DNA from: an uncultured Alphaproteobacteria bacterium
GTDB taxonomy: Bacteria > Pseudomonadota > Alphaproteobacteria > HIMB59 > GCA-002718135
Direction: 5' to 3'
DNA: 64,000 nucleotides
Assembly: GCA_902596065.1 (NCBI GenBank)
Contig: CACJSL010000001.1
Span: forward strand, 48,782 to 112,781
In this document: one piece after another, positions 42,681-60,794 of the stretch
Position numbering within the stretch: position 1 is the first letter of the stretch
How the letters are laid out: each line of letters opens with the position of its first letter
Notes under the pieces: model-generated
What the model was told of the DNA's origin: nothing
The model's input: the letters and a program-made list of their open reading frames with translations, nothing else
Databases searched by the model: none
Position numbers and translations under genes: made by a program

Positions 42681-43806
42681 TATTAAATTGAACCCTTTTA
42701 CCTTCTTGGTTAAACAATAGTGCTTTATTAGGAGCTCTTTTAATGTTTACTGTTGAACCATTAGAAATTTCATGTGTTAATTGAGGTATGCCTCTAACAA
42801 TAATTCTATTCATCCCATCTTCCGTATTTACATGAAAAAAAATATCTGATCCTAAATTTTCTCTGTAAGAAACTTTTGCACTAAAAGTATCTTCATCACT
42901 TTGATTGGAAATTTCTAAATGTTCAGGTCTAATACCAATATTTAACTCTAGATTTGTTTCTGAACTTTTTCTTTTTAAGTTTAGATTTAGTAAGTTTACA
43001 GTTCCGCTTGAATCTGATGAACCTTTAAAAATATTAATTTTAGGACTTCCAACGAATTGAGCCACACTTAGTGAGGAAGGATTATCATATACTTCTTGAG
43101 GAGTATCAAGTTGTAATAAATTTCCATCAATCATAACAGCCATACGAGAAGACATCGTTAATGCCTCCGCCTGATCATGAGTAACGTATACAAAAGTAGT
43201 TTTAAGTGAACTATGAAGTTCAGATAATTCGGAGCGCATATGAACTCTAAGCGCTGCATCTAAATTTGATAACGGTTCATCCATCAAAAAAGCAACAGGC
43301 TCTCTTACCATTGCCCTACCAAGAGCCACTCTTTGTCTTTGACCACCAGATAGTTGACCTGGTTTTCTATCAAGTAGTTCAGAGATTTTAAGTGTTTCAG
43401 AAGTTTTACTAACCAATTGATTTATAGATTCTGTTTTTTGTTTTTTATTCGGAGATAAATTTCCAATTAAAGGCAATCTTTCAAATGAATTGTAATCTCT
43501 AAGCCTTAAAGGAGTTTCTAAATTTCTTCTTACTGAAAGATGAGGATAGAGAGCGTAAGACTGAAACACCATTGCCAAGTCTCTTTCACTAGCTCTAATT
43601 TTATTTACGTTTTTATTATCAATTAAAACATCACCAGAAGTTTGTTGTTCAAGACCGGCTATAATTCGAAGTAAGGTAGATTTGCCACAACCAGATGGGC
43701 CAACTAATGTTAAAAATTCACCGTCTTTTATATCTACACTTAAATCTTTTAATACCTCTGTGGATCCAAATGATTTTGAAATATTTTTAAGTGATATTGT
43801 GCCCAC
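42673..43806 (-). CDS. ABC transporter ATP-binding protein (UgpC/MalK-like)
   Basis: GPSGCGKST, LSGGQRQRVALGRA, FLMDEP, C-terminal regulatory/TOBE domain. Confidence 0.9.
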   Translation of the reverse strand: MGTISLKNISKSFGSTEVLKDLSVDIKDGEFLTLVGPSGCGKSTLLRIIAGLEQQTSGDVLIDNKNVNKIRASERDLAMVFQSYALYPHLSVRRNLETPLRLRDYNSFERLPLIGNLSPNKKQKTESINQLVSKTSETLKISELLDRKPGQLSGGQRQRVALGRAMVREPVAFLMDEPLSNLDAALRVHMRSELSELHSSLKTTFVYVTHDQAEALTMSSRMAVMIDGNLLQLDTPQEVYDNPSSLSVAQFVGSPKINIFKGSSDSSGTVNLLNLNLKRKSSETNLELNIGIRPEHLEISNQSDEDTFSAKVSYRENLGSDIFFHVNTEDGMNRIIVRGIPQLTHEISNGSTVNIKRAPNKALLFNQEGKRVQFNNA

Positions 43807-43969: not shown

Positions 43970-45211
43970 GTGACTGAAAATTTATTAATTAACAATAGAG
44001 AATATCCAAGTATATTTTCAAAGACAGCTATAGTTATTTGTCTTGATGGAAGCCAAAAAGAATATCTTGAAGAGGCATCAAAATCAAATCTGACACCTAA
44101 TCTTGACTCATTAATTGCAAGTGGTCAAAATTTATTAGTTCACAGTGCTATACCTAGCTTCACAAATCCAAATAATATTTCAATTGTGACAGGGCAGCCT
44201 AGTTCTGTTCACGGAATATGTGGTAACTTTTTTTACACTCCTGAAACGGGTGAAGAAGTAATGATGAATGATCCAAAATATATGCGTGCTCCAACAATTT
44301 TTGAAAAATTTTATAATTCTGGCTCAAAAATCGCTCTTGTTACTGCAAAAGATAAACTTAGAACCCTTTTGGGAAATGGTTTAAGTTTTGATAATAATCG
44401 AGCAATATGTTTTTCTGCAGAAAAATCTGATCAGGCAACAAAAGAACTTAATGGTATAGAAAATGTTAATGACTGGTTAGGTATGCCGGTGCCAGAAGTG
44501 TACTCCGAAGGTCTTTCTGAGTTTGTCATGGCCGCTGGAGTAAAACTACTAAAGGAATTTAAACCAGACATTATGTATTTATCTACGACTGACTATATTC
44601 AACACAAGTATGCACCTGGAAATGAAATAGCAAATAAGTTCTATGCAATGTTTGATAAATATATTGGCCTTTTAAATAAAGAAGACGTATCAATGATAGT
44701 AACAGCTGATCATGGAATGAAATCTAAATCAAAAGAAGACGGTTCACCTAACGCGATATTTTTACAAGATTATCTTGATAAAAAATTTGAACCGAACTTA
44801 ACAAAAGTCATCTTACCAATCACAGATCCGTATGTAGTTCATCATGGATCATTAGGTTCATTTGCTACAATTTATCTTGAAGATAAAACTAAAGTCAACG
44901 ATGTTATTGAATCAATTAAAGCAATTAAAGATATAGAAGTAGTCTTAACTAAAGACGAAGGTTGCTCAACATATAATCTTCCTCCAGATAGAATGGGAGA
45001 TATAATATGCATGTCTTCTGAATTTATGACAATTGGATCCTCTTTAGATAAACATAATCTTTCTGGATTAAATGAGCCTTTGCGTTCCCATGGTGGTTTA
45101 CATGAGCGAGAAGTACCTTTTATTTCAAATTTAAAAATACAAAATTTAAATAATGAAAAACAGTTATATAATTATGATGCATTCTATTATGCAATCAATG
45201 GAGCTTTATGA
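43970..45211 (+). CDS. phnA: Phosphonoacetate hydrolase (alkaline phosphatase superfamily)
   Basis: [35 protein letters not shown] (Thr nucleophile region), [44 protein letters not shown]. These closely match what I recall of Pseudomonas fluorescens PhnA. GTG start. Confidence 0.9.
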
Positions 45212-46650
45212 TGGAAAAGAAAATTATTAATGAAGCTATGCGCATTGCTGGCAAAAAAGTAAATTTTGAAAAAACAATTGATGTTGAATATCCATTTACA
45301 GGAGAAGTAATTGGTACAGTTCCTGCAGGAAATGCTGAGCATGCAAAACAAGCTCTTGAAATTGCTGCAAACTATCAACCTAAGTTGACACGATATGAAA
45401 GACAAAAAATACTTCAAACCGCAGCTGAGGTACTTGTAAAAAGAAAAGAAGAGATTTCTGACATCATTACCTTAGAACTTGGAATTTCAAAACAAGACTC
45501 ATTGTATGAAGTAGGCAGAGCATTTGATGTTTTTTCTTTAACCGCACAACTTTGTATTCATGATGACGGAGAAATTTTTTCTTGTGATTTAACTCCACAC
45601 GGAAAAGCGAGAAAAATATTTACAATAAGAGAACCATTAACAGCAATTTCGGCAATTACACCATTTAATCACCCTTTAAATATGGTGGCACATAAAATTG
45701 CACCTTCAATTGCAACGAATAATTGTACTGTTTGTAAGCAGACTGAGTTAACTCCATTAACAGCAATGGTTCTTGCTGATGTTTTGTATGAAGCTGGTTT
45801 GCCGCCAGAAATGTTTTCTGTTGTTACAGGATGGCCGCAAGATATCGGCTCTGAAATGATAAAGAATCCAAATATTGATCTTATTACTTTTACTGGAAGT
45901 GTTGGTGTTGGAAAACTAATTGCTGAACAAGCAGGATACAAAAGAACTGTCCTTGAACTTGGTGGAAATGATCCTTTAATAGTTTTAAATGATTTAGATC
46001 CAGATGATTTAAAGAAAGCAGTTGAATTAGCAGTTACTGGAGCAACAAAAAATTCAGGACAACGATGTACAGCTGTTAAAAGAATACTTTTGCAAGAAAA
46101 AATTGCTGATCAGTTTGTTGAAATGGCTTTGGAAAGAGCAAAAAAAATTAAATTTGGTGATCCAATGAGTATGGAAACTGACTTAGGCACTGTTGTTAAT
46201 GCTCAAGCAGCGGAATTATTTGATAAAAGAGTTTCAATGGCAGAGGCAGATGGTGCAAAAATCTTATATCACCCTGGAAGAAAAGGTGCGTTATTGCCTC
46301 CTATAGTAATTGATAATGTTGATCCAAAAAGTGAACTTGTTCTTGAAGAAACATTTGGCCCAGTTATCCCTATTATTAGGGTTCCCAATGATGATGAATC
46401 GGTAATCAAGATTTCAAACTCAACTGCTTTTGGATTATCTTCAGGTGTATGCACCAATAATTTTATGAGAGCTAAAAAATATATTCAAGGTCTTAATGTT
46501 GGAACTGTAAATATCTGGGAAGTACCTGGTTACAGAATTGAAATGTCCCCTTTTGGAGGAATTAAAGATTCTGGCTTAGGCTACAAAGAAGGCGTAATAG
46601 AAGCGATGAAGAGCTTTACTAATGTAAAAACATTCTCACTTCCTTGGTAG
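45208..46650 (+). CDS. phnY: Phosphonoacetaldehyde dehydrogenase (ALDH superfamily)
   Basis: ELGGNDP catalytic Glu, GQRCTAVKR catalytic Cys; ATGA overlap with phnA. Confidence 0.8.
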
Positions 46651-46819: not shown

Positions 46820-48073
46820 ATGAGAAAATTAATTACAGGATTAGCAGCCGTATTAGCTTTTGGTTTCTATGGTTCTGTTAATTCAGCGAAGTCTATAGAA
46901 ATAGAAGTAGCTTATCCTTATTCAGGTTTATTTGATGTTACCTATCAAGCTATTATGCCTGAGTTTGAAAAAGCTCATCCAGATATTCAAGTAAAATTTA
47001 GAGCAACTTATGAAAACTATGAAGATGCTACTGCTACAATTTTAAGAGAAGCAACTTCTGGTAATCTACCAGATGTTACAATGCAGGGTCTTAACAGACA
47101 AGCTCCTCTAGTAGACAAAGGTATTGCAAAATCTTTAGAGCCATTTATTGCAAAAGAAGCTGATTTTGAAAAAGATGGTTATCATGCTGCAATGTTAAGT
47201 CTTTCAACATTTGGAGGAGAGGTTTATGGTTTGCCATTCTCTGTATCAACTCCTGTTGGATATTATAACATGGATTTATTAGCTGAAGCTGGCATAGACA
47301 GCATCCCAACTAACTGGGATGAAGTTATTGATGCTTGTGGAAAATTAGAGGCAGCTGGAAAAGGTACTTTATATTTTGGTTGGAACATTACAGGTAACTG
47401 GTTCCACCAAGCATTAATGCATACTCAAAATGTAAAAATTGTTGAAGATGGAAAAGTAAACTTAGGTGGAGACGCTGGTTTAGCAACATTACAACAAATG
47501 CACGATATTATGAGTGGATGTAACATGCCTAACTATTCAATTGCTGATGGTCAAGCTGCATTTAATGCAGGCACGATCGGTATGATGTTCTGGTCAACTT
47601 CAAGCTTAGGTTCAGTAAATGCTGCAAAAGCAGATTTCGTACTTAAGACAGCTCCATTCCCTGGAATGGCAGGTGTTAATAATGGAACCCCAGCAAGATT
47701 ACCAGCAGGTGGAAATGCAGCAATGTTAACTTCTACTTCTGATGATCCAGCAAGAGTAGACGCAGCATGGACATTCTTGAAGTTCATTACTTCTGGTATT
47801 GGAGCAGCATTAGTTGCTGAGACTACTGGTTATGTTCCACCAAACAAAGCAGCTAACGATTTATTAGGTGATTTCTATAGTGCAAATCCAAATAAACTTA
47901 CTGCGGTAGAACAGCTTCCACTCTTAGCAGACTGGTTTGCATATCCTGGTGAAAACGGACTAGCAATCACTCAAGTAATTTATGATTACACTGAAGAAAT
48001 TGCCACAGGAAGTGCTGATGATATGGCAGATCTTCAAGAAGAAATGATGGAAGAAATCAACGATCTTTTATAA
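46820..48073 (+). CDS. ABC transporter substrate-binding protein, family 1 (UgpB-like)
   Basis: Signal peptide, family 1 SBP architecture, strong SD GGAGGA. Likely partner of the permeases at 40831-43806. Confidence 0.85.
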   Translation: MRKLITGLAAVLAFGFYGSVNSAKSIEIEVAYPYSGLFDVTYQAIMPEFEKAHPDIQVKFRATYENYEDATATILREATSGNLPDVTMQGLNRQAPLVDKGIAKSLEPFIAKEADFEKDGYHAAMLSLSTFGGEVYGLPFSVSTPVGYYNMDLLAEAGIDSIPTNWDEVIDACGKLEAAGKGTLYFGWNITGNWFHQALMHTQNVKIVEDGKVNLGGDAGLATLQQMHDIMSGCNMPNYSIADGQAAFNAGTIGMMFWSTSSLGSVNAAKADFVLKTAPFPGMAGVNNGTPARLPAGGNAAMLTSTSDDPARVDAAWTFLKFITSGIGAALVAETTGYVPPNKAANDLLGDFYSANPNKLTAVEQLPLLADWFAYPGENGLAITQVIYDYTEEIATGSADDMADLQEEMMEEINDLL

Positions 48074-48157: not shown

Positions 48158-49237
48158 ATGCCTCTAACTACAACTACAATAGGTGCTTATCCAAAACCTA
48201 AACAAACTCCAATTCAAGATTGGTTTTTAGGCACTAAATCTGAAGAAGAAAGAAAAGCTTCAAAAGGATTATTATCAAACTGGTCACCCGGTGCATATGA
48301 AAAAGCATTAGAGTCTGCTGGAGAAGAAGCGGAGAAATTATTTTTAGAAGCAATTAAAGAAGTTATTACTGATCAAGTAAATTCAGGCATTGATGTTCCA
48401 ACTGATGGAGAAGTACGAAGAGAAAGTTATGTTTTATATCAATGTCGTTTTTTAAATGGTGTAAGCTTTAAGGAAGTAACACATAGGTCAGTTAGACAAG
48501 GCGCGTTTGAAGCAGATCTTCCAACAATAGTAGCGCCTATTTCAAGTAAAGAAATTCGCTTGCATTTAGATTGGAAAAGCGCGCAACAATTTACAAAAAA
48601 TCCTGTAAAAATTACTCTACCAGGACCTATGACAATTACAGATTCAATTGCTAATAACTATTATGATGACATGAAAAAACTAGGTTTTGATCTAGCACTT
48701 GCTTTAAACAAAGAAGTGAAAGCGCTTGTAGATGCTGGGTGTAAATACATTCAAATTGATGAACCTGTATTTGCAAGAAAACCTGAAGAAGCAAATTCTT
48801 ATGGTATGGAAAATTTAGAAAGAATGATGCACGGGATTCCAAAAGAGGTACAAAGAGTGTGCCATATTTGTTGCGGCTATCCAAACTCTCTTGACTCCGA
48901 GGGTTACAAAAAAGCAGACTTAGATGCTTATGATAGGATTGCTACTTTAGTAGATGATTCTACGATTGATGAAGTGTCATTAGAAGACTCACATAGACAC
49001 AATGATTTAAATCTTTTAGAAAAATTTACTAAAACAAAAGTTATTTTTGGATTTATTGATATTGCCAAAAGCAGAATGGAGTCAGTAGAAGAAGTAAGAA
49101 GTCGTATGAAAGACTCTTTAGAACATATTGACGAACATAGATTGATAGCTGCTCCAGATTGTGGTTTAGGTTTCTTTACAAGAGAACAAGCTATTGAAAA
49201 AATGTCAATATTATCTAAGGCTGCAAAATCAATTTAG
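48158..49237 (+). CDS. Single-domain cobalamin-independent methionine synthase (MetE C-terminal)-like Zn enzyme
   Basis: TDGEVRRE, IQIDEP, H236-I-C238, E276 (SLEDSHR), C335 (APDCGLGF); SD AGGGAGA. Confidence 0.8.
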   Translation: MPLTTTTIGAYPKPKQTPIQDWFLGTKSEEERKASKGLLSNWSPGAYEKALESAGEEAEKLFLEAIKEVITDQVNSGIDVPTDGEVRRESYVLYQCRFLNGVSFKEVTHRSVRQGAFEADLPTIVAPISSKEIRLHLDWKSAQQFTKNPVKITLPGPMTITDSIANNYYDDMKKLGFDLALALNKEVKALVDAGCKYIQIDEPVFARKPEEANSYGMENLERMMHGIPKEVQRVCHICCGYPNSLDSEGYKKADLDAYDRIATLVDDSTIDEVSLEDSHRHNDLNLLEKFTKTKVIFGFIDIAKSRMESVEEVRSRMKDSLEHIDEHRLIAAPDCGLGFFTREQAIEKMSILSKAAKSI

Positions 49238-49241
49238 TAGA

Positions 49242-50354
49242 ATGTGGAATTATTATAATCCTGTTGATGTTGTTTTTGGTGAAAATAAATTTTCAGAGAT
49301 ACACAAAATATTAGAAAATAAAAAATACGTCGTTGTTACCCATCCTGAAGAAATTTTTAAAAAATATACTGATCAATTAAATACATCATCTAATCCTCCC
49401 CTTATGGTTATGACAGAAGTACAACCTAATCCAGATTATTTAGATATTCTTACTCTATTAAAAAATTTTGCTTCTATAGCAAAAGAAGTTGATCATGTAG
49501 TTGCTATAGGAGGTGGATCTGTTACCGATACAGCAAAAGCTTTAGCAGCATTTAAAGGCAATGAAAATCTTTTAACAGATTTTGTTCGCAATAAAAAAAC
49601 TCCTTATGTGGATGACCCTATAAGTATTATTGCTGTGCCTACAACTTCTGGAACATCAAGTGAATTAACTTGTTGGGCTACGATTTGGGATAAAGAAAAA
49701 AATGGAAAGCTATCTTTAGCACACAAGAGCCTTTATCCTTTAAAGGCAATTATAGATCCAGTTATCATGTTAGATAAACCCAAAGGATTAACAATTTCAA
49801 CAGGTCTTGATGCCCTTTCTCATTCAATGGAAAGTATTTGGAATATTAATGCAAACCCAGTTTCTGCTATGCATGGAATAGTGGGCTCTCAATTAATTAT
49901 TGAAAACCTTCCTTTATTAGCTAATGATTTAAAAAACATCACATTAAGAAGTAATGTTGCTCGCGCTTGCGTTCATGCGGGTTTAGCTTTTTCTAATACT
50001 AAGACAGCCATTGCACATAATATTTCTTATCCCATTACTCTTAATTATGGTATTCAACATGGAATTGCGTGTTCTTTTAGCTTGCCTATGATTTTAAGAA
50101 GTATGCTTGATATTAATGATGAAGCTGAAAATCGTTTAAAAATGATTTTTAATGATGATTTAATTAGTTCAGCAACAAAACTTGAATCAATTTTACGACA
50201 ATTAAATATTCCTCTTAATCTTAATGAATTAAAAATCAATAAAGACGAGTGGAATAAAATTGTTGGTGATGCATTTATGGGCGAAAGAGGTAAAAATTTT
50301 TTAGGTAATAAAAATGCTTTTGATAAAGCAGTTGATGAATCAAATTTTTTTTAA
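49242..50354 (+). CDS. Group III iron-containing alcohol dehydrogenase (phosphonoacetaldehyde reductase-like)
   Basis: GGGSVTDTAKA, DALSHSMES, AHNISYP motifs. ATG at 49242 lies 5 nt after the upstream stop; the track start at 49194 is TTG inside the upstream gene. Confidence 0.82.
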   Translation: MWNYYNPVDVVFGENKFSEIHKILENKKYVVVTHPEEIFKKYTDQLNTSSNPPLMVMTEVQPNPDYLDILTLLKNFASIAKEVDHVVAIGGGSVTDTAKALAAFKGNENLLTDFVRNKKTPYVDDPISIIAVPTTSGTSSELTCWATIWDKEKNGKLSLAHKSLYPLKAIIDPVIMLDKPKGLTISTGLDALSHSMESIWNINANPVSAMHGIVGSQLIIENLPLLANDLKNITLRSNVARACVHAGLAFSNTKTAIAHNISYPITLNYGIQHGIACSFSLPMILRSMLDINDEAENRLKMIFNDDLISSATKLESILRQLNIPLNLNELKINKDEWNKIVGDAFMGERGKNFLGNKNAFDKAVDESNFF

Positions 50355-50355
50355 A

Positions 50356-51168
50356 TTAAAATTTTTTAGTTGTCTCAAACCAATTGATATTATCTTTTAA
50401 AAAATCTTCAGTATGGACTACTAGTGAGTTTTTATTAATTAATATTACATTATAATTTGGATCAGTATTGGCCGTTCCCAATCTATAGTTTTTTGAAAAA
50501 TTGGGCACCAATGGAGACCAAGTACTTCTCGGCGCACTAAAAGGTATGTTTAAATAATTTCCTGATACTGTAATATGCTGATGACCAAAAAAAATATGTT
50601 GAATAATTTTTTTAAATTTAATTAATATATCTTTAAACTCATCTCCTTGTTGTAAACCAATATAATCACTAGTGGGCTCTCCTAGGGGTAAAGGATTATG
50701 ATGCATAAAAAGATAAACTTGTTTATTATTATCTGAAGCATTTTCTAGAGTATTTATAAGCCAACTTTGTCTGTTGTTGCAAAAATGCCCTTGATGGGTA
50801 TTTGATAAATTTGTATCTAAAAAAATAAAACGTTTATCTTCAATGTCTTCAAAGTATTGAATAAAACCATTTTCATCTAAAGGTATTTTTGTAAATATTT
50901 GTTTAAACTGTTCTCTATCATCATGATTGCCCATAAGCAATTTTGGAAACAAATGTTTTGGTATTTTGGAATTTAATAATATTTCATTTAATTTATTATA
51001 AGATTCACTATCCCCGTCATGCGTTAAATCTCCTGATATAACAAATAGCTTTGAGTCTAAATGATTGTTGCAAATATGTTGAAGTGCTAGTGAAAATCTC
51101 TCTTTAGCATCATGTTCAAAAAGTTTATCTGGAGAAATATGAGGATCTGATAAGTGGATTATTTTCAT
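50356..51168 (-). CDS. Class III metallophosphodiesterase (GpdQ/CpdA family)
   Basis: HLSDPH, SGDLTHDG, GNHDD, FMHHNPLPLG, FGHQH. These five metallophosphoesterase blocks are spaced as in GpdQ. Confidence 0.85.
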   Translation of the reverse strand: MKIIHLSDPHISPDKLFEHDAKERFSLALQHICNNHLDSKLFVISGDLTHDGDSESYNKLNEILLNSKIPKHLFPKLLMGNHDDREQFKQIFTKIPLDENGFIQYFEDIEDKRFIFLDTNLSNTHQGHFCNNRQSWLINTLENASDNNKQVYLFMHHNPLPLGEPTSDYIGLQQGDEFKDILIKFKKIIQHIFFGHQHITVSGNYLNIPFSAPRSTWSPLVPNFSKNYRLGTANTDPNYNVILINKNSLVVHTEDFLKDNINWFETTKKF

Positions 51169-51194
51169 ATTTAAAAAATATTTTAAATGAATAA

Positions 51195-51824
51195 TTAAAG
51201 TTTTGTTTTAAAAAAAAGATACTTATTAAATTCTTTTTTTAAATCGATGCTAACACGGGCATGTACTTTCCCTTGTTTGCCCATAAAAGAACTTTTCTTT
51301 TGAACAGGGAAAACACCCTCATGCCAAATATTGGGATGAATATATAAACCTTTTGATCCATCAAAATAAAATGCCTTAAAATCTTCTGCTTGAATATCAT
51401 CGCCAGGTAACGCAAGAGGTGAAATAAATGGACCTCTTTCAGAGGGAAAAAATAACTGCCCTCCATCTGGGTGGTAATTAACATGCCATATATAAATCTC
51501 TTCTGGCTCACTATATTCTGTATTGTTTTCAATATTTTCTGGAGGGGCAGAATAGCCTAAAATATATTTTCCATCTATTTCATACTCACTATTATGTTGC
51601 ACAGCATTATTTTGCCCATAAAGAGTTGAGCCTTCCCACCAAGTATCAAACGCACCTTTGGTATAGCCCGCTTCATTACCTGTTCCTTCATCAATTTCTC
51701 GCCAACCTTGTTTTGGCCAAGTTACAATTTCAACATCACTGTTTTCAAATGAGTCTATTAAATAACCATATCCTTTAAGAGTTTCATTTGTAGCTTTGAC
51801 TAAGGGGATTTCAATGGCCTGCAT
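51195..51824 (-). CDS. Ureidoglycolate lyase (AllA) family-like cupin, extended form
   Basis: N-terminal LKGYGYLID, central YHPDGGQLFFP and C-terminal GLYIHPNIWHEGVFP align with blocks I recall from AllA (FSAYGDVIE, RHPLGTQAFIP, VNYHRNVWHHPLF). Confidence 0.55.
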   Translation of the reverse strand: MQAIEIPLVKATNETLKGYGYLIDSFENSDVEIVTWPKQGWREIDEGTGNEAGYTKGAFDTWWEGSTLYGQNNAVQHNSEYEIDGKYILGYSAPPENIENNTEYSEPEEIYIWHVNYHPDGGQLFFPSERGPFISPLALPGDDIQAEDFKAFYFDGSKGLYIHPNIWHEGVFPVQKKSSFMGKQGKVHARVSIDLKKEFNKYLFFKTKL

Positions 51825-51835
51825 AAATATTACTT

Positions 51836-52936
51836 TTAATTAATTTTAATTTGTAATTCATTTACAACTTCTTTTATGGCCTTAATGGTATCATGCATAT
51901 CATTGTCATCTAAATTTCCAATACATCCAATACGAAAAGTATCAGCAACAGTAAGCTTGCCTGGATAAATCAAAAAATCTTTATTACTCAAAGCATCATA
52001 AAATTCTTCAAAATTAAAATTTGAATTTTGAGGCTGCATAAATGTTATAATTATTGGCGCTTGTAATTCATTTGACAGTAATTGTTTAAAACCTATTTCT
52101 TTCATACCATCACAAATTATTTTGCAATTATTTGAATACCTTTTATGCCTTCCTTCAACCCCCCCTTCTTTTGAATGTTCATTTATAGCTTGTTGAAAGG
52201 CAGCTAAAACATGTGTGGGAGGAGTAAAACGCCACTGTTTATTTTTTTCCATCGCCTGCCACTGGTCATATAGATCTAAACTTAAAGAATGTGCATTTCC
52301 TTTTGCTTTTTCGATAATATTATTTTTAACTAAAATAAAGCCTACTCCTGGAACTCCTTCTAAACATTTATTGGAAGAAGCAGCAACAGCATCAAATGCA
52401 ATTGTTTTACTACTAAGAGGAAGAGCGCCAAAAGCACTCATAGCATCAATAAATAATGATAAATTTTTTTTTGCTACTAAGTCAGATATTTTTTGAATAG
52501 GATTTAATATTCCTGAGGTTGTTTCGCAGTAAACAGCAAACACATGAGTTAAATCAGTATTTGAATCTATGATGTTTTCAATTTCATCTAAATCATGTTG
52601 TTCATGTTCCGCAACTTCATAAGCAATACATTCTCTACCAACATAGTCACACATTTTTTTCATACGGTGACCATATGCTCCATTAATTAATATTAATATT
52701 TTTGCATCTTTAGATGTGAGAGAGCCAACCATTGATTCTACTGCAAATGTTCCGCTACCTTGCATTGGAACACATTGGTAATTATTTTCACCATCAATAA
52801 GTTTTACAAGAGACTCACGAATAGAATGGTTCAGATCAATAAATTTTTGATCTCGCGAACCCCAATCATGAAGCATGGCTTCTTTGGTTGTCATGGAGGT
52901 AGTAAGTGGTCCAGGTGTAAGAAGTTTTTTATCCAT
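51836..52936 (-). CDS. phnW: 2-aminoethylphosphonate:pyruvate aminotransferase
   Basis: LLTPGPLTTS N-terminus, class V aminotransferase fold, PLP Lys in SSNKCLEGVPGVGF. Confidence 0.9.
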   Translation of the reverse strand: MDKKLLTPGPLTTSMTTKEAMLHDWGSRDQKFIDLNHSIRESLVKLIDGENNYQCVPMQGSGTFAVESMVGSLTSKDAKILILINGAYGHRMKKMCDYVGRECIAYEVAEHEQHDLDEIENIIDSNTDLTHVFAVYCETTSGILNPIQKISDLVAKKNLSLFIDAMSAFGALPLSSKTIAFDAVAASSNKCLEGVPGVGFILVKNNIIEKAKGNAHSLSLDLYDQWQAMEKNKQWRFTPPTHVLAAFQQAINEHSKEGGVEGRHKRYSNNCKIICDGMKEIGFKQLLSNELQAPIIITFMQPQNSNFNFEEFYDALSNKDFLIYPGKLTVADTFRIGCIGNLDDNDMHDTIKAIKEVVNELQIKIN

Positions 52937-53034
52937 ATTCTTAATTGAGTTAACTATTTAATTCTTAATTAGCTCACTAGCAATTAAATAAAAAATTGAT
53001 TTGCAATTTTTCTTGAAAGTTGTATTTTTTCTAA

Positions 53035-53607
53035 ATGGAAAATATTGTAGATCAACTTCTAAATCTTTTAGTTACAAAGGGGGGAGATATACAATATGGA
53101 AATGAAGATGTTACTCAATTAGAGCATGCCTTACAGTGCGCAGAATTAGCTGAACAACACAATTTACCAGGCCCAACAATAGCAGCTGCTTTATTACATG
53201 ATATTGGCCATCTTTTATATGAAGACAAGGATCCAATTCATGAAGGGAAAGATGGACGTCATGAAAACTTAGGAGCTGATTATTTATCGCAATACTTTGA
53301 TACTGATGTGACACAGCCTATTCGAGCTCATGTAGATTCCAAAAGATATTTAGCAACAGTTGAAGAAGGTTATTATGATCTTCTCTCAGAGGCCTCCAAA
53401 CTTTCACTCGCTGTTCAGGGCGGTCCATTTACCAAAGAGGAGGCAAAAAAATTTATAGATAAACCATTTATGAAGGAAGCTGTAGAAATGAGGCGTTTCG
53501 ATGATATGGCAAAAATTTTAAATAAAAAAACCCCTGATATAAATTATTTTAGACCATATGTAGAAAAAGCACAAAATTCATTTAATTTAAAAAACATTAA
53601 GAATTAA
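53035..53607 (+). CDS. phnZ: PhnZ-type HD-domain di-iron oxygenase (phosphonate-degradation-associated HD protein)
   Basis: LEHALQC, AALLHDIGH, RHENLGADYL, RAHVDSKRYL, RRFDDMAK give the H/HD/H/H/D ligand pattern of the PhnZ/MIOX-like family. Confidence 0.75.
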   Translation: MENIVDQLLNLLVTKGGDIQYGNEDVTQLEHALQCAELAEQHNLPGPTIAAALLHDIGHLLYEDKDPIHEGKDGRHENLGADYLSQYFDTDVTQPIRAHVDSKRYLATVEEGYYDLLSEASKLSLAVQGGPFTKEEAKKFIDKPFMKEAVEMRRFDDMAKILNKKTPDINYFRPYVEKAQNSFNLKNIKN

Positions 53608-54472
53608 ATATAAAATATACTCCAATAAAAAATATTACAGCTGATAAAATTCTTATAAATTTTATTTTTTCACCTAAAAATATAAAGCTGATTAATGAAG
53701 TCATAATGATACTAGACTCTCTTATAGAAGATACATAAGCAATTGGTTGATGATTCATGCTCCATACAATTATTCCGTAAGCAATAAATGACATAAAAGA
53801 TGCAACTGTGATTAATACCAGTTGTTTTGTTCTTATTTTAAATAGGTCATTTTTTTGTGTTAAATAAACATAACTAATAGTTATCCATCCACCTAAAAAG
53901 AAATTCCATACAATAAAAGTAAATTCATTTTTAGCACTTCTTACACCTGCACCATCAGAAAAAGTATATAAAGCTATAAGTATAGAAACAAATATAGAAA
54001 TAATTAATAATTTTAAATTTAATTTATTTTTATAATTTTCTTTGGCTAATAATAATAAGCCAAACACGACAATGCTTATACCAACGTAACCTTTAAAAGT
54101 TATATAATCGTTTAAAAATGTAACTGAGAAGATTGTAACGAAAACAGGAGCAAGTCCTCTAAATACAGGATAGGTTATTGTTATATCGCCACGATTATAA
54201 ATATTTCCTAGAATTAGAAAGTATGAACTATGAAGAAGCAGTGATAAAATCAAAAAAATCCATGTTATTCCTTCTGGCAGAGGAACAAAAAATAATACAG
54301 GAAAAAAAATTATGCTTTGAATTAACATTTGTAAAGCTATTGCAACTTGAGAATTGTTAATTGATTTAATAATAATATTCCAGCTTGCATGAAGAAATGC
54401 AGCAAAAAGTATTAGTAAAAATATTGAAATATTACTCATAGGCAAAAAAAATGGGGATGAAATCATCCCCAT
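53597..54472 (-). CDS. DMT superfamily (EamA) transporter, paralogue of 39963-40802
   Basis: 10-TM profile and shared sequence blocks with the other copy. The true start may be the internal MSNISIF. Confidence 0.78.
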   Translation of the reverse strand: MGMISSPFFLPMSNISIFLLILFAAFLHASWNIIIKSINNSQVAIALQMLIQSIIFFPVLFFVPLPEGITWIFLILSLLLHSSYFLILGNIYNRGDITITYPVFRGLAPVFVTIFSVTFLNDYITFKGYVGISIVVFGLLLLAKENYKNKLNLKLLIISIFVSILIALYTFSDGAGVRSAKNEFTFIVWNFFLGGWITISYVYLTQKNDLFKIRTKQLVLITVASFMSFIAYGIIVWSMNHQPIAYVSSIRESSIIMTSLISFIFLGEKIKFIRILSAVIFFIGVYFIFNS

Positions 54473-54493: not shown

Positions 54494-55537
54494 TTAGTTT
54501 TTTGGCTCAGTTTTGCCATCATATCTTTTTTTCCATTCAGCAACTATACGATCTTTGTTTGCCGCTGCCCAAACAAAATCATTATCAATTAATTTTGCTT
54601 GCACTTCGTCATAAAAATCAGGAAGTTCTGGATCTTTAGTTACTTTAGAAGGATCAGCAATAATTGATTGTCTTTGCCCGAATAATTTCATTCCTTCTCC
54701 CAAAGTCCAATCCATTAATGTTTTTGCATCTTCAAGATTATCTGTTCCTTCCATTATAGCCACTACTTGCATTTCCCAACCAATTCCTTCTTCAGGAATA
54801 ATCATATCAATTGGAGCACCAGCTTTAATAACTTTAATTGCTCTACCAGGCCATGAGATACCAATTGCAAATTCACCAGCCCCTGCTTGCTTACAAGGTT
54901 TAGAACCAGAGTGAGTATACACACCTATATTTTCATGTAGTGCATCCATATACTCCCACGCTTTATCTTCACCCCATATTTGCATCCAACTAGATGCATC
55001 CAAGAAACCAGTTCCAGAGGAAGCTGGATTTGGCATAGAAATATGACCTTTATAAATTGGATCAGTTAACTCTGCCCAAGTTGTTGGTTTAGGTAAACCA
55101 AGTTTTTCTGCCTCAATGCGGTTCCAGCAAATACAACCTGCCCAGCCATAATTTCCAACCCAAGTTACAGGTGCAGATTTATCAACATATCGTTGATCAA
55201 TCGCATCCATACCTTTTGGAGTATATTCAACAAACATACCTTCTGCTTCCATATTTAAAGCAACAGTTGCAGCCATCTCAAATAAGAAATCAGCTTGTGG
55301 GTTATCTTTTTCTGCCATCATTTTTGCTGCCATTGTTCCAGTTGATTCACGAACAACGTTAACTTTTATATCGGGATGATCTTTTTGAAATTCATCCATG
55401 TAATATTTAAGATTATCTGCATCAGTACTAGAATATACTAAAAGCTCACCAGCATTAGCTAGATAGCTAAATGTAGATAAAGATATAAAAATTAAAACAG
55501 CACTTAGTGTGTTTAAAATTTTTTTTATTAAAAACAT
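54494..55537 (-). CDS. Putative 2-aminoethylphosphonate ABC transporter substrate-binding protein (PhnS2/AepX-like)
   Basis: Signal peptide, Fe3+/2-AEP-type SBP fold; divergent from the ATPase/permease genes. Confidence 0.78.
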   Translation of the reverse strand: MFLIKKILNTLSAVLIFISLSTFSYLANAGELLVYSSTDADNLKYYMDEFQKDHPDIKVNVVRESTGTMAAKMMAEKDNPQADFLFEMAATVALNMEAEGMFVEYTPKGMDAIDQRYVDKSAPVTWVGNYGWAGCICWNRIEAEKLGLPKPTTWAELTDPIYKGHISMPNPASSGTGFLDASSWMQIWGEDKAWEYMDALHENIGVYTHSGSKPCKQAGAGEFAIGISWPGRAIKVIKAGAPIDMIIPEEGIGWEMQVVAIMEGTDNLEDAKTLMDWTLGEGMKLFGQRQSIIADPSKVTKDPELPDFYDEVQAKLIDNDFVWAAANKDRIVAEWKKRYDGKTEPKN

Positions 55538-55736: not shown

Positions 55737-56816
55737 ATGACTGAACAAAAAAACAATACTTATCTTGCAGTTAATAATTTATCTAAATCTTTTGGTAATT
55801 TTGAAGCCATTAAAAATATAGGAATAGATATAAAAGAAGGTGAGTTTGTTTGTTTTCTTGGACCTTCTGGTTGCGGTAAAACAACTTTACTGCGATGTAT
55901 AGCAGGATTGGAAACACAAACTTCTGGATCTGTTATTCAAAAAGATATTGATATTTCACATGAACCTCCATCCAATAGAGATTTTGGAATTGTCTTTCAG
56001 TCTTATGCATTATTTCCAAACCTTTCTGTTTTTTCTAACATTTCATATGGATTAATAAATAATAAATGGAAAAAAGATGACATCAAAAAAAGAGTAGATG
56101 AATTGCTTGATCTGGTTAATCTTACAGAGCATGCATCAAAGTATCCAAGTCAATTATCTGGTGGGGAACAACAACGAGTAGCTTTAGCTAGAGCTCTTGC
56201 TACATCACCTGGATTATTATTGCTTGATGAGCCTCTTTCCGCACTAGATGCAAAAGTAAGAGTTTTTCTAAGAAAACAAATAAGAGATTTGCAAAGAAAA
56301 CTTGGAGTAACTACTATTATGGTTACTCATGACCAAGAGGAAGCCCAAACAATGGCGGATAGAATATTTGTTATGAATGAGGGTGAAATTATTCAGTCTG
56401 GAACACCTAGTGAAATTTATACAAAAGCTAATTCACCTTTTATTGCTTCTTTTATTGGAAGTATGAATTTTATACCTGCAACAATTGATAGTTCTAAAAA
56501 AGTGAAGTGTAACAATATTGAAATAAATTGTGATACAAGCTCTTTTACAGAAAATGATTCTGTGCAATTAGCTGTAAGACCTGAAGAAATTTATTTTAAA
56601 CAAGAAAACCAAGATGATAATGTTATATCTGCTACAATAAAAGAAATAGAATTTTTGGGTTCTTTTCAACGAGTCTATTTTGAAGCAAAGAGTTTTAGTA
56701 ATGAGTTGATCATAGTAGATGTCCCAAGTGCAAACGCTAGAAAAATTAAATTAATTATTGACGAAGAAATAAATTTGTATTTTTCCAAACAAGATGCACG
56801 AATTTATTCAACTTAA
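55737..56816 (+). CDS. Putative 2-aminoethylphosphonate ABC transporter ATP-binding protein
   Basis: GPSGCGKTT, LSGGEQQRVALARA, LLLDEP, TOBE-like C-terminus. Confidence 0.85.
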   Translation: MTEQKNNTYLAVNNLSKSFGNFEAIKNIGIDIKEGEFVCFLGPSGCGKTTLLRCIAGLETQTSGSVIQKDIDISHEPPSNRDFGIVFQSYALFPNLSVFSNISYGLINNKWKKDDIKKRVDELLDLVNLTEHASKYPSQLSGGEQQRVALARALATSPGLLLLDEPLSALDAKVRVFLRKQIRDLQRKLGVTTIMVTHDQEEAQTMADRIFVMNEGEIIQSGTPSEIYTKANSPFIASFIGSMNFIPATIDSSKKVKCNNIEINCDTSSFTENDSVQLAVRPEEIYFKQENQDDNVISATIKEIEFLGSFQRVYFEAKSFSNELIIVDVPSANARKIKLIIDEEINLYFSKQDARIYST

Positions 56817-56819
56817 ATT

Positions 56820-58523
56820 ATGAATTTATTAAAGTTTGGCAATATTCGTAGAGGAAAAGACTCAAGTGATAGAGTTGGGCAATTTATGCTCATATCATAT
56901 ATCATTCTTTTTTTAATATTCTTAGTTTTACCCTTAGTAGCATTAATTTCAAAAAGTTTACAAAATAAAGAGGGTGAATTTATAGGTTTGGCAAACTATA
57001 ATTTATATCTTCAAGAACCAGCATTATTTCAATCACTTTTTAATAGTTTGTTTGTTGCTATTAGCTCTACAATTATAGTTGTTATATTAGCCTTTTTATT
57101 TTCATATGCGCTTACGCGTACATGTATGCCTTTTAAGGGATTTTTTAAATTAATAGCTTTAATACCTTTATTAAGTCCTTCTATTCTAGCGGCTATTGCA
57201 CTTGTGTATTGGTTTGGAAATCAAGGAGTTTTAAAAGAAGTTCTACTAGGGAAATCCATATATGGCCCAATTGGTATTATTATGGCTTCAGTCTATTGGA
57301 CTTTTCCGCATGCTCTTATAATTTTAACCACTTCTTTATCCTTATCAGACTCGCGATTATATGAGGCAGCTGAAGTATTAAAAACTTCTAAACTTAGAGC
57401 ATTTTTTACTATTACAATTCCTGGAGCAAGATATGGAATTATTAGTACTGCTTTTGTAATTTTTACCCAAGTGTTTACAGACTTTGGTGTTCCCAAAGTT
57501 ATTGGAGGAAATTACAATGTGCTTGCTACAGATATTTATAAAGAAGTTGTTGGTATGCAGAATTTTCAAATGGGAGCTGTAATCTCAATGGTTTTATTAG
57601 TTCCTGCCATGATCGCTTTTTTTATTGATCGTTATTCAAGAAAAAAACAAATTTCTTTGCTTACTGCCAGGTCAGTTGTTTTTAAGCCAAAAAAACATTT
57701 TAAAGTTGATATGATTATGCTCGCCTTTTGTTCGGCGCTAGCATTAATCATTATATTGATGATTGGGATGGCACAATATGGTGCAATAGTAAAATTTTGG
57801 CCTTACAATTTAAATCTTACTTTAAAAAATTATAATTTTGAAGTTGCTGGACTTGGGTGGGATTCTTTTTATAATTCAGTCCGATTAGCTTTTTATGCAG
57901 CAGTATTTGGGACCATTATTATTTTTGTAGGCGCTTATTTAATTGAAAAATTAAGAATTAATGAAGGGACAAGAAATGTAGTACAATTTTTTGCTCTAAT
58001 GCCCATGGCTGTACCTGGATTAGTATTAGGTCTAGCTTACATTTTTTTCTTTAACGCAAAAGACAATCCATTAAACTTTATTTATGCAACTATGATTATT
58101 TTAGTAGTTAATACTATTGTTCATTTTTATACAGTATCCCACTTAACAGCTGTAACAGCTTTAAAACAAATGGATAAAGAATTTGAATCTGTTTCCTTAT
58201 CTTTAAAAATACCTATTTATAAAATGTTTTGGCGTGTTACCTTGCCCGTTTGTTTGCCTCCTATCTTTGATGTTTCTATTTATTTATTTGTTAATGCTAT
58301 GACAACAGTTTCGGGTGTAATCTTTCTTTACTCTTATGATACTACCTTAGCGTCAGTCTCAGCTATTCATTTGGATGAACAGGGTGAAGTTGCTAAAGCG
58401 GCAGCTATGGCCATGTTAATCGTATATGTTTCTATTGCTGTGCGATTAACGCATACAATTATTACAAAAAAAATATTGAGAAAAACTCAGGCCTGGCGCT
58501 ATAATATTATTGATACAAGTTAA
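56820..58523 (+). CDS. Putative 2-aminoethylphosphonate ABC transporter permease (fused two-domain)
   Basis: 567 aa with duplicated permease domains, as in single-permease PhnU2/AepW-type systems. Confidence 0.85.
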   Translation: MNLLKFGNIRRGKDSSDRVGQFMLISYIILFLIFLVLPLVALISKSLQNKEGEFIGLANYNLYLQEPALFQSLFNSLFVAISSTIIVVILAFLFSYALTRTCMPFKGFFKLIALIPLLSPSILAAIALVYWFGNQGVLKEVLLGKSIYGPIGIIMASVYWTFPHALIILTTSLSLSDSRLYEAAEVLKTSKLRAFFTITIPGARYGIISTAFVIFTQVFTDFGVPKVIGGNYNVLATDIYKEVVGMQNFQMGAVISMVLLVPAMIAFFIDRYSRKKQISLLTARSVVFKPKKHFKVDMIMLAFCSALALIIILMIGMAQYGAIVKFWPYNLNLTLKNYNFEVAGLGWDSFYNSVRLAFYAAVFGTIIIFVGAYLIEKLRINEGTRNVVQFFALMPMAVPGLVLGLAYIFFFNAKDNPLNFIYATMIILVVNTIVHFYTVSHLTAVTALKQMDKEFESVSLSLKIPIYKMFWRVTLPVCLPPIFDVSIYLFVNAMTTVSGVIFLYSYDTTLASVSAIHLDEQGEVAKAAAMAMLIVYVSIAVRLTHTIITKKILRKTQAWRYNIIDTS

Positions 58524-58547: not shown

Positions 58548-59075
58548 ATGGCAATGCAATTAATTGATTATGTTCAACCAAAAGATGTAAAAGGAAAAAT
58601 ATTTTTAACCTGTTTTCCAGGAAGAAATGGAGAAAAAATTTCTTTTGAGGAAAATATTTTTTTAAAAGAACTAAATAATTTTTCCTCTCTAAATTCTAAT
58701 ACGGTCGTAACTTTGGTAGAGGATAATGAAATTGAAAAACTTTGTGATAAAAAGTTTTTTGTTCGAAAAATTTATTCTCATAATTTTAAATGGATACATA
58801 TGCCAATTGTAGATTTAAAATCCCCTGATCATAAATTTATGGATAAATGGCAAACAACAAAAGTATTATTAAAAAATGATTTAATAGAAGGAAAGAATAT
58901 TATTTTGCATTGTATGGGAGGCAAAGGACGTACAGGTACAATTGCCGCTATTCTCTTAATTGAGTTTGGGGAAAAACATGAAGAGGCTATAAAAATTGTT
59001 AGAGAAAAAAGAAAAGGCGCTATTGAAACAAAAGAACAAGAAGATTTTATTTTTTCTTATAGGCCTGTAGCTTAG
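58548..59075 (+). CDS. Cys-based phosphatase, dual-specificity/PTP-like (CX5R)
   Basis: HCMGGKGRTGT P-loop (HCX5R[ST]); 24 nt after the permease stop. Confidence 0.75.
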   Translation: MAMQLIDYVQPKDVKGKIFLTCFPGRNGEKISFEENIFLKELNNFSSLNSNTVVTLVEDNEIEKLCDKKFFVRKIYSHNFKWIHMPIVDLKSPDHKFMDKWQTTKVLLKNDLIEGKNIILHCMGGKGRTGTIAAILLIEFGEKHEEAIKIVREKRKGAIETKEQEDFIFSYRPVA

Positions 59076-60124
59076 TAATTTACGGTTAAATTAAAAATAT
59101 TTTGTAACACAAATAAAATTATAAAAGATATTAATGCTGCAAGGATTGGCAACAAAACCCAACCCATAGAAATTTTCCTTGCAATTGTCCATTGTACTTC
59201 TTTTCCACCTTTTAATAATCCTATACCAATTACACCACCCACGACTGCTTGAGAGCTTGATACCGGAACAAGAGGAATTGAGGGTAAATTAATTGACTGA
59301 AGAAAATTACTAATACCTTGAGAGGCAAATAGAAATAAAACGATAGAATGAGCTAGTACAACGATAAAAGCGGCTACAGGTGACATCTTTAACAAATCAT
59401 TTCCAACAGTAAACATTACTTTTTTAGAATAAGTAAAAACACCAACTGCTATAGCAATACCACCTAATAGAAAAAGTTGCTCTTTGGACGAGAAATTAAA
59501 ATCATTTAAAATATTAATATCAGTAAAAGGTGAGATAGGGACAAAAACCCCCATTACATTAGCAATGTTATTAGCTCCTAGACTGTACGCTCCAAAAGCA
59601 CCGGCTAATAAAAGAGCTGCTCTCGTATATGCGTCTAATCGCAGAATATGTAATTTTGCTTTTTGTAGAAAATTTTTTGTTATTACAAAAAAAAGCATTG
59701 AAAGCAAACCAGCAATAATAGGACATAAAACCCAAGTCCCTAAAATTGTAATTAAAACTTGAATATTGGTTGAAGATCCAGTGTACAAGTTCCATCCTAT
59801 AATAGCGCCAACAATTGCCTGCGTTGTTGAAACAGGAAGACCAGATTTTGTCATTATATATACTGAGAGTCCCGCAGCAACACATGCAGCAAAAGCTCCA
59901 GGCAATGCATTGATTGATCCGAGCTTGCCCAGTGTTTCGGTTGTTCCAGATCCACTAATAATAGCTCCTAAGATTACAAATATACTACAAACAATTGCAG
60001 CAGTTTTAAATTGTACCATGCGCGTGCCAACCGCAGTTCCAAAAACATTAGCTGCATCATTGGCTCCTAAAGACCATCCTAGAAATAATCCTCCTAAGAG
60101 AAAAATAATAATTGTTAATTCCAT
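59072..60124 (-). CDS. pit: Inorganic phosphate transporter, PiT family
   Basis: GANDAANVFGTAVGT and GANNIANVMG repeats, GLPVSTTQAIVGAIIG. Confidence 0.9.
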   Translation of the reverse strand: MELTIIIFLLGGLFLGWSLGANDAANVFGTAVGTRMVQFKTAAIVCSIFVILGAIISGSGTTETLGKLGSINALPGAFAACVAAGLSVYIMTKSGLPVSTTQAIVGAIIGWNLYTGSSTNIQVLITILGTWVLCPIIAGLLSMLFFVITKNFLQKAKLHILRLDAYTRAALLLAGAFGAYSLGANNIANVMGVFVPISPFTDINILNDFNFSSKEQLFLLGGIAIAVGVFTYSKKVMFTVGNDLLKMSPVAAFIVVLAHSIVLFLFASQGISNFLQSINLPSIPLVPVSSSQAVVGGVIGIGLLKGGKEVQWTIARKISMGWVLLPILAALISFIILFVLQNIFNLTVNY

Positions 60125-60131
60125 AAATTAA

Positions 60132-60794
60132 TTAAACTGATCTTTTGATAGCGTAGATCTGAATTTCATCTGAAATATCTTCTGCTTGATCACAAATACG
60201 ATCAATTTTTTCAACAAAATAACGTAGATGCATTTTTTGATCCAAAGAAAGATTAGAATCAAAAATTTTTCTCGCCAAAGAACTAAATTTTATATCAGAT
60301 TCTTTTTCATAAAATGTCACTTTGTGTGCATTGTCTCTAACAGATTTAATATCTCTAAAAAACGATCTTACTGTTAAACATAGTGCCTCTACACAATTTA
60401 CTACAGTCTCTGTTAAATCAATTAAATCGTCATGAAACTCTTTTGGAAAATTTGGTTTTTGAATAGAGAAATGATAACAATTACCTTGATACATTCCAAT
60501 AACTTCATCAAGATGTTCAAGAACTCTTAATACATCACTTCGAGCATCGGGAATTAATGTTTCTTCATATAAGGTGTGTTCCACTTCTTTGGTTATTTTA
60601 TCAGCCTTACTTTCCATTAATTTAACTTGTTCGACCATTTCATCGAATTTGCCATTGGCAGAACTAGATAAATATGTTGGAATAATAGACTTAAATACCA
60701 AGCCTACTTCAGAGAGAATATCAACAAATTCGTCTATTTCTCTCTCTAATTTTTTGGTTTCACCAAATAAAGATGTACTTTTTAATCCAAACAT
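60132..60794 (-). CDS. DUF47/PhoU-like phosphate transport regulator (PiT accessory)
   Basis: All-helical 220-aa protein immediately upstream of pit in the typical pairing. Confidence 0.78.
   Translation of the reverse strand: MFGLKSTSLFGETKKLEREIDEFVDILSEVGLVFKSIIPTYLSSSANGKFDEMVEQVKLMESKADKITKEVEHTLYEETLIPDARSDVLRVLEHLDEVIGMYQGNCYHFSIQKPNFPKEFHDDLIDLTETVVNCVEALCLTVRSFFRDIKSVRDNAHKVTFYEKESDIKFSSLARKIFDSNLSLDQKMHLRYFVEKIDRICDQAEDISDEIQIYAIKRSV

Follow-up and report, generated by a model that had tools for sequence, protein, structure and literature searches.

The DNA analysed here is a 64-kb stretch from an uncultured alphaproteobacterium (the window), and the gene under study, at 53035-53607 on the forward strand, encodes a homologue of the HD-domain mixed-valent di-iron oxygenases PhnZ and TmpB (the HD gene and the HD protein). 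The open reading frame (ORF) has exactly these bounds, starts with ATG and specifies 190 amino acids. It is not a chance ORF, since 4976 proteins match its product at E <= 1e-10; one cluster of homologues, at about 81% identity, comprises 2704 member sequences. The gene resides in an island for phosphonate and phosphate scavenging, while the rest of the window, of about 30% GC, carries housekeeping genes and a proteorhodopsin gene.

The HD protein matches the Pfam HD domain (E 1.8e-08), and its best NCBIfam model is TIGR03276, 'phosphonate degradation HD-domain oxygenase', with 197.4 bits (E 1.4e-58). This score lies below the curated cutoff of 214.6 bits, as do those obtained with the same model for PhnZ (residues 12-183, 188.1 bits) and TmpB (201.9 bits), so that the cutoff shuts out proven members too. 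Nearly full-length matches were found in the Protein Data Bank (PDB) to TmpB (6NPA, E 2.8e-33) and PhnZ (4MLM, E 2.4e-26), and the clade of the HD gene is 39% identical to the former and 34% to the latter. The second-best NCBIfam model, the equivalog NF052439 for the hydroxymethylphosphonate dioxygenase GmPhnZ1, gave 153 bits against a cutoff of 300, and the TmpB equivalog NF049941 gave 149.5 bits against a cutoff that is also 300, TmpB itself scoring 348.

A preliminary description of this DNA had recognized a PhnZ-like di-iron ligand pattern, and the five motifs that it quoted were all located, LEHALQC at residues 29-35, LLHDIGH at 53-59, RHENLG at 75-80, RAHVDSKRYL at 97-106 and RRFDDMAK at 153-160. 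They supply the complete H...HD...H...H...D set of six di-iron ligands, H31, H55, D56, H76, H99 and D156. In an alignment of 30 sequences, consisting of distant relatives, PhnZ and TmpB, all six are invariant together with H59, K103 and R104, and 22 family columns are invariant altogether. The PhnZ counterparts of H31, H55, D56, H59, H76, H99 and D156 are H34, H58, D59, H62, H80, H104 and the terminal Asp. With PhnZ, the (R)-1-hydroxy-2-aminoethylphosphonate (R-HAEP) oxygenase of the uncultured bacterium HF130_AEPn_1 (4MLM/4MLN/4N6W), the HD protein has in common the fold and family, the six iron ligands, the equivalent of H62 (H59) and the YxxE loop treated below; ligands and loop are likewise those of its best PDB match, TmpB, the (R)-1-hydroxy-2-trimethylammonioethylphosphonate oxygenase of Leisingera caerulea (6NPA). 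The HD gene is thus a genuine member of the PhnZ family with an intact catalytic apparatus. Most HD-domain proteins are phosphohydrolases (PMC8177086), and in PDB titles PhnZ was once a 'predicted HD phosphohydrolase'. That the HD protein should be an ordinary HD phosphohydrolase, or a relic without activity, and not an oxygenase, is nevertheless very unlikely in view of the full di-iron ligand set, the loop specific to PhnZ and TmpB, the 22 invariant columns and the full-length homology to two oxygenases proven by crystallography and biochemistry; the strong conservation and abundance of the gene, reflected in the cluster of 2704 sequences, also speak against it.

It had been noted as well that a Tyr and a Glu precede the first His ligand by 10 and 7 residues, at the spacing of PhnZ, and this is correct. 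Y21 and E24, N-terminal of H31, align with Y24 and E27 of PhnZ, which precede H34 (numbers obtained by counting along the 4MLM sequence), and with the Tyr and Glu of TmpB, given as Y30 and E33 in PMC8177086; both are conserved at 90% or more in the 30-sequence family sample. The function ascribed to the pair, recognition of the 2-amino group, holds for one residue and not for the other. The Glu touches the amino or ammonium group of the substrate in PhnZ and TmpB, whereas the Tyr is a resting-state ligand of Fe2 that leaves upon substrate binding (PMC8177086). Neither is the loop diagnostic of a primary 2-amino group, because TmpB, which acts on a quaternary (trimethyl) ammonium substrate, has the identical loop (PMC8177086). 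The YxxE loop speaks for a substrate with a cationic nitrogen and not specifically for a primary amine, and since the conserved Glu contacts the substrate ammonium in both enzymes, an amine-bearing 1-hydroxyphosphonate would be favoured.

The island around the HD gene has the following features, in which 2-AEP stands for 2-aminoethylphosphonate and ABC for ATP-binding cassette.

43970-45211, forward strand: PhnA, phosphonoacetate hydrolase (TIGR02335, 467.2 bits, above the cutoff of 407.55).
45208-46650, forward strand: PhnY, phosphonoacetaldehyde dehydrogenase, distinct from PhnY* (TIGR03250, 788.2 bits, above the cutoff of 635.65).
46820-48073, forward strand: UgpB-like ABC substrate-binding protein (SBP_bac_1, SBP_bac_8, weak UgpB match).
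48158-49237, forward strand: MetE-like protein with the catalytic domain of cobalamin-independent methionine synthase, role unassigned (PF01717, E 8e-35).
49242-50354, forward strand: Fe-dependent alcohol dehydrogenase (Fe-ADH) of the phosphonate-associated TIGR03405 type, PhpC-like candidate 2-hydroxyethylphosphonate dehydrogenase (377 bits, cutoff 423.7; start taken from gene calls in identical contigs).
50356-51168, reverse strand: calcineurin-like metallophosphoesterase (SpdA/CpdA-like), third gene of the phnW operon (PF00149; NF050112, 183 bits, below cutoff).
51195-51824, reverse strand: AllA-like cupin of the ureidoglycolate-lyase family, 209 amino acids (PF04115, 39.1 bits).
51836-52936, reverse strand: PhnW, 2-AEP:pyruvate transaminase (NF010006, 523.6 bits, and TIGR02326, 475.4 bits, both above cutoff).
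52937-53034, no strand: divergent intergenic region between phnW and the HD gene, 98 bp (from the sequence).
53035-53607, forward strand: HD gene, PhnZ/TmpB-family HD-domain mixed-valent di-iron oxygenase homologue (TIGR03276, TmpB and PhnZ matches, ligand set).
53597-54472, reverse strand: EamA-family membrane protein of the phosphonate-associated phn_DUF6 type (TIGR03340, 145.4 bits, below cutoff; PF00892).
54494-55537, reverse strand: PhnS2-type putative 2-AEP ABC transporter substrate-binding protein (TIGR03261, 403.2 bits, above the cutoff of 392.75).
55737-56816, forward strand: ABC ATPase of the PhnS2TU-type transporter (ABC_tran/TOBE_2, Pfam on identical genes in loci L006-L008).
56820-58523, forward strand: fused permease of the PhnS2TU-type transporter (BPD_transp_1, Pfam on the same identical genes, L006-L008).
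58548-59075, forward strand: Cys-based protein resembling dual-specificity and protein tyrosine phosphatases (DSP/PTP-like), with an HCxxGxxR motif (PF22784, E 7.5e-16).
59072-60124, reverse strand: PiT/PHO4 phosphate transporter (PF01384 on orthologues).
60132-60794, reverse strand: PhoU_div/DUF47 protein (PF01865 on orthologues).

The distance from the HD gene to phnW, phnA and phnY is at most 9 kb, and all three score above their equivalog cutoffs; the island holds the full PhnW-PhnY-PhnA route and a PhnS2TU transporter. The EamA gene is convergent with the HD gene and overlaps it by 11 nt. Among some 50 related marine loci that encode an HD protein of 60% identity or more (SAR11-type; fetched loci carry L numbers and flanks of up to 10 kb), the gene order is nearly fixed. 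On one flank EamA, PhnA and PhnY, then UgpB-like, MetE-like and Fe-ADH genes in varying combination, the metallophosphoesterase, the cupin and PhnW lead up to the spacer, and on the other the HD gene is followed by the DSP-like phosphatase, PiT, PhoU_div and a SET-domain gene; by this synteny the PiT and PhoU_div genes form a conserved island boundary. phnW stands divergent and adjacent upstream of the HD gene in 36 of the 48 related loci with enough flank, and in 39 of 56 the gene directly downstream is that of the DSP-like phosphatase, an order seen in L013-L016 and about 39 other loci. A gap of 1-7 nt separates the two genes, which share a strand, in the four closest genomes and suggests an HD-DSP operon; in 13 of the 56 loci, as in the window, an EamA-PhnS2TU cassette sits between the two and would interrupt this operon. 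The DSP-like phosphatase followed by PiT and PhoU_div downstream gives the HD gene a phosphorus-scavenging context. The closest genomes are GORG single-cell assemblies labelled 'uncultured Alphaproteobacteria'; with the GC content of about 30% and the proteorhodopsin gene, they make a SAR11-like marine alphaproteobacterium the probable source of the window. In three loci (L001-L003) the usual place of phnW is taken by a kinase-like gene, with only a short phnW-like match farther upstream and no cupin. The same kinase-like gene, a GntI-like kinase of the choline-kinase/APH fold, is one of two genes placed between phnW and the PhnS2TU transporter in L009 (2835-5173); the other encodes a TIGR03329 protein, 'putative aminophosphonate oxidoreductase', at 618.8 bits, slightly under cutoff.

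The spacer between phnW and the HD gene measures 97-119 bp in 36 distinct related loci, 98 bp in the window, and carries a partly conserved ATCAA...TTGAA-like dyad in the 36 distinct sequences. That of the window (52937-53034) also has two TTCTTAATT repeats. It is probably a shared promoter and regulatory region, in which dyad and repeats may be the site of a regulator; no regulator gene was seen near the spacer and none could be linked to the dyad.

In the PhnY*/PhnZ, TmpA/TmpB and GmPhnY*/GmPhnZ1 pathways a Fe(II)/2-oxoglutarate (Fe/2OG) hydroxylase gene adjoins the oxygenase gene or is fused to it. The HD gene has no such neighbour, and the statement of the preliminary description that the island contains no recognizable Fe/2OG dioxygenase could be extended to the whole window. 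No TauD, PhyH or 2OG-FeII_Oxy domain came up in the 64 kb when practically all ORFs of at least 150 amino acids were scanned with Pfam, and three partner profiles run against the six-frame ORFs of the window with the HMMER filters off gave no match (best E 1.9). These profiles were built from real neighbours of HD homologues, namely a TmpA/γ-butyrobetaine-hydroxylase (GBBH) type from 29 loci, a PhyH type from L049, L075 and L076, and a TauD-proper seed from L090; an initial hidden Markov model of the TmpA/GBBH type only had missed the PhyH-type and TauD-proper partners of those four loci, which were revealed by Pfam and NCBIfam scans of the neighbours. No match to the three profiles was obtained either in the roughly 50 metagenomic and genomic loci with an HD protein at least 60% identical, and TauD matches in the metagenome set were confined to two contigs, where the HD gene is 46-51% identical and falls outside the clade studied here.

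Partnerless genes of the PhnZ family are plainly common. A HMMER search of 1.84 billion representatives returned 1806 clusters at E <= 1e-10, and neighbourhoods were surveyed in species-representative genomes with at least 79 usable loci, a sample that is not unbiased and in which some contigs are short. A TmpA-type gene is adjacent or fused to the HD gene in 29 of the 79 loci, a PhyH-type gene adjacent or fused in three and a TauD-proper gene adjacent in one, while 46 have no Fe/2OG gene in the fetched flanks; many of these 46 adjoin flavin adenine dinucleotide (FAD)-dependent amine oxidases and major facilitator superfamily (MFS) transporters, or lie inside clusters for carbon-phosphorus (C-P) lyase and PhnCDE. 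The term 'orphan', which had been applied to the gene, is apt in that no partner adjoins it, but the state is neither rare nor new, as these 46 loci likewise have no adjacent Fe/2OG gene and phnZ within phnWAY clusters is already tabulated in PMC8154272.

In a neighbour-joining tree the HD genes cluster by genomic context. Over L013-L092, context-coherent clades are seen with TmpA- or PhyH-type dioxygenases (some fused), with FAD amine oxidase and MFS genes, and with C-P lyase/PhnCDE; no characterization of the hydroxylase-less FAD-oxidase/MFS and C-P-lyase-embedded clades was found in the literature searched. A placement among the PhnZ and TmpB clades had been envisaged: the SAR11-type genes, with the HD gene, form a distinct clade (100% bootstrap), separate from all characterized enzymes and outside the TmpA-associated clades, whereas no sister group receives more than 23% bootstrap. 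The Pelagibacteraceae single-cell genome AG-447-E19 (L090, 2061-5011) has an apparent operon that starts with a Fe/2OG dioxygenase of the TauD-proper type, which reaches 230 bits with the taurine dioxygenase model and so stays below its cutoff, and continues with a different HD gene (45% identical) and a BetA-like GMC oxidoreductase; this could be an uncharacterized hydroxylase/HD pair in relatives of SAR11.

The same cell could nevertheless possess a complete pathway, in which 2-AEP is converted to R-HAEP by a canonical Fe/2OG enzyme with its gene in another part of the genome, or by an unrecognized protein of the island such as the cupin. The view is limited to 64 kb of the genome, the cupin is conserved, near the HD gene and without an assigned function, and the pair in L090 indicates that TauD-family partners exist in the wider lineage. 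However, the known Fe/2OG partners are adjacent or fused (33 of 79 loci), and ocean surveys find phnY* in 1.6-3% of genomes against 9-10% for phnZ (PMC3266647). In that source Villarreal-Chiu et al. give 9.4% of GOS genome equivalents for PhnZ and 1.6% for PhnY*, and the values of Martinez et al. 2010 are quoted as 10% for phnZ and 3% for phnY*. The AEP-specific PhnY*Z form is present at very few sites (Murphy et al., PMC8316502). We regard a complete pathway as improbable, and less likely than the different-substrate explanation weighed further on.

As to the cupin, which the preliminary description had offered as a source of the hydroxylation, the evidence turned against it. Its PF04115 score of 39.1 bits exceeds the cutoff of 23, and in the PDB it matches crystallized ureidoglycolate lyases (AllA) at E 6e-07. 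An AlphaFold (AF2) model, with a mean predicted local distance difference test (pLDDT) score of 69.7, gave AllA for all the top five Foldseek matches (target-normalized template modelling scores 0.57-0.63), and Fe/2OG enzymes appeared only as weak generic cupin matches; sequence and predicted fold are hence those of ureidoglycolate lyase and not of Fe/2OG oxygenases. The NCBIfam AllA equivalogs score far below every cutoff, and the protein is a divergent member of the ureidoglycolate lyase family, not AllA itself. A cryptic oxygenase site of the H-x-D...H kind (H118-P-D120 with H163/H168) was considered and rejected, as the segments align with HP.G.Q and H.N.WH of AllA, to which H118, H163 and H168 are common. 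The gene is tied to phnW and not to the HD gene: it lies directly downstream of phnW in every locus with that side visible, and phnW-cupin, usually with the metallophosphoesterase, recurs in the window (50356-52936, reverse strand), L009, L010, L012-L016 and many of L093-L153, apparently as one operon. In L012 the cupin is present with no HD gene visible, and the HD genes of L001-L003 are without it. In the Hyphomicrobiaceae locus L085 the cupin (10561-11244) follows TmpA (583 bits, equivalog cutoff 400) and a TmpB-like HD gene; because it there accompanies a complete TmpA-TmpB pair, it is no substitute for a hydroxylase. No description of a phnW-linked cupin was found in the phosphonate literature searched.

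Loci of this composition have precedents. Among 19,425 complete genomes, Zangelmi et al. 2021 found phnZ homologues in 24 of 75 phnWAY and 15 of 1186 phnWX clusters, and never with pbfA (PMC8154272, Table 1). They read the phnZ homologues of phnWAY clusters without phnY* as an R-HAEP branch; PhnW and PhnX process R-HAEP poorly, and PhnZ or PbfA was proposed as a separate branch for it (PMC8154272). The HD locus has this configuration, with phnW, phnA and phnY and, within the window, neither phnY* nor pbfA; Pfam scans of the window ORFs showed no class-III aminotransferase of the PbfA type, which fits the published mutual exclusion. phnZ is also annotated in the SAR11 strain HTCC7211 (Grote et al., PMC3448164), and Pelagibacterales account for 45% of marine phnZ sequences, while in 30-50% of cases phnZ is accompanied by phnA or phnX (Lockwood et al., PMC9381506). 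The configuration is the same in a marine low-GC alphaproteobacterium, with no difference in kind. A partnerless phnZ beside phnW, phnA and phnY, and the reading that we favour for it, are therefore already published, and the HD locus is another example.

We propose, with somewhat more confidence than doubt and judging from the sequence, that the HD enzyme carries out the oxidative C-P cleavage of imported R-HAEP or a close 1-hydroxy-aminophosphonate. Using O2 and a mixed-valent Fe(II)/Fe(III) pair, it would cleave the C-P bond of a 1-hydroxylated phosphonate, yielding phosphate and a carboxylic acid. Because the island is without a PhnY*- or TmpA-type hydroxylase, the substrate would not be made from 2-AEP in the cell; R-HAEP, or a close N-substituted relative, would be imported from seawater, and the products would be glycine and phosphate. 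The enzyme would constitute a side branch parallel to PhnW, PhnY and PhnA, which would handle 2-AEP, R-HAEP being a compound that chemistry of the PhnW/PhnX type does not process properly. The Fe-ADH would probably feed in 2-hydroxyethylphosphonate, to whose oxidation PhpC-like Fe-ADHs of degradative clusters have been assigned (PMC13576164, 2026). The scavenging of pre-hydroxylated phosphonates was one of three explanations put forward in the preliminary description; it is the best supported of them, and also the published one (PMC8154272).

The proposed reaction is that of PhnZ. The gene of PhnZ adjoins that of PhnY*, whereas the HD gene has phnW as its divergent neighbour, within an island for the PhnW-PhnY-PhnA route; compared with TmpB, an adjacent TmpA is lacking. 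The proposed role is the same as that of PbfA, the pyridoxal-phosphate-dependent R-HAEP ammonia-lyase, as an accessory through which a PhnW-based cluster can cope with R-HAEP. PbfA, however, is an unrelated protein that eliminates ammonia to give phosphonoacetaldehyde, independently of O2 and without C-P cleavage. GmPhnZ1 of Gimesia maris belongs to the same family and is paired with the methylphosphonate hydroxylase GmPhnY*.

Several points weigh against this proposal. A hydroxylase may be encoded elsewhere in the genome, of which the window covers 64 kb. In L001-L003 the HD gene occurs without an intact phnW-cupin operon, so that its role may not depend on the PhnW route. No assayed enzyme of the clade was found in the literature searched, and the clade, for all its 100% bootstrap, has no well-supported sister group and is only 34% identical to PhnZ and 39% to TmpB. 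The low identity, and scores of 149.5 and 153 bits against cutoffs of 300, make the transfer of a substrate by homology weak.

The main rival to R-HAEP cleavage retains the chemistry and supposes another environmental 1-hydroxyphosphonate, for which hydroxymethylphosphonate (HMP, giving formate), N-methylated or trimethylated 1-hydroxy-AEP, 1-hydroxyethylphosphonate and 1,2-dihydroxyethylphosphonate are candidates. It draws on the separation of the clade from the characterized enzymes, with full bootstrap and no resolved sister, on a GmPhnZ1 score marginally higher than that for TmpB (153 against 149.5 bits), on GmPhnZ accepting both HMP and R-HAEP (PMC10574752), by which members of the family can be promiscuous, and on the division of marine phnZ into subclades with different substrates (PMC8316502). 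The conserved E24 of the YxxE loop, however, speaks for a substrate with an ammonium group (PMC8177086), aminophosphonates are suggested by the tight linkage to phnW and to an AEP-type transporter, and the mutual exclusion of phnZ and PbfA fits R-HAEP (PMC8154272). A different substrate thus seems to us possible, though clearly the less probable choice. Somewhat more doubtful still is a broader conjecture, that the HD gene, the DSP-like phosphatase and the divergent PhnW-cupin-metallophosphoesterase operon together make up an undescribed route for some other abundant marine hydroxy-phosphonate or phosphonate ester, not 2-AEP or R-HAEP. If it were true, surveys would be mistaken in concluding, for instance, that 'phnZ is the dominant 2-AEP strategy'.

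The identity of the substrate bears on how ocean surveys are read. Metagenomic surveys place phnZ among the most abundant marine phosphonate-catabolic genes and often equate it with 2-AEP degradation; PMC9381506 counts it as 2-AEP catabolism and does not consider the missing PhnY*. When phnZ is split by subtype, estimates fall below 1% (PMC8316502, PMC10574752). The SAR11-type clade appears to make up much of the 'phnZ' of ocean metagenomes and may be the phnZ type most frequent in the sea, and loci like the present one would explain the gap between total and subtype-split estimates. The common marine phnZ lacks a PhnY* and so could not start from 2-AEP.

Some further features of the island and its surroundings deserve mention. 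The MetE-like catalytic-domain protein stands alone, and its gene has the same place, flanked by those of the UgpB-like binding protein and the Fe-ADH, in the related islands L004, L005, L013, L014 and L100. Genes of a UgpB-like ABC importer (40831-43806, reverse strand, and 46820-48073, forward strand) share the island with the metallophosphoesterase (50356-51168, reverse strand), which might suggest import and cleavage of a phosphonate/phosphate diester or monoester ahead of PhnW, for example the AEP glycerol ester from phosphonolipids. About 26 kb away from the HD gene, the segment 24822-30989 carries a DUF4856 protein and a membrane protein of the fatty-acid-hydroxylase family (PF04116). 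An ABC transporter of the SBP_bac_6 type comes next, overlapping by 11 nt; it is unusual for an O2-dependent di-iron hydroxylase to be paired with an importer in this way.

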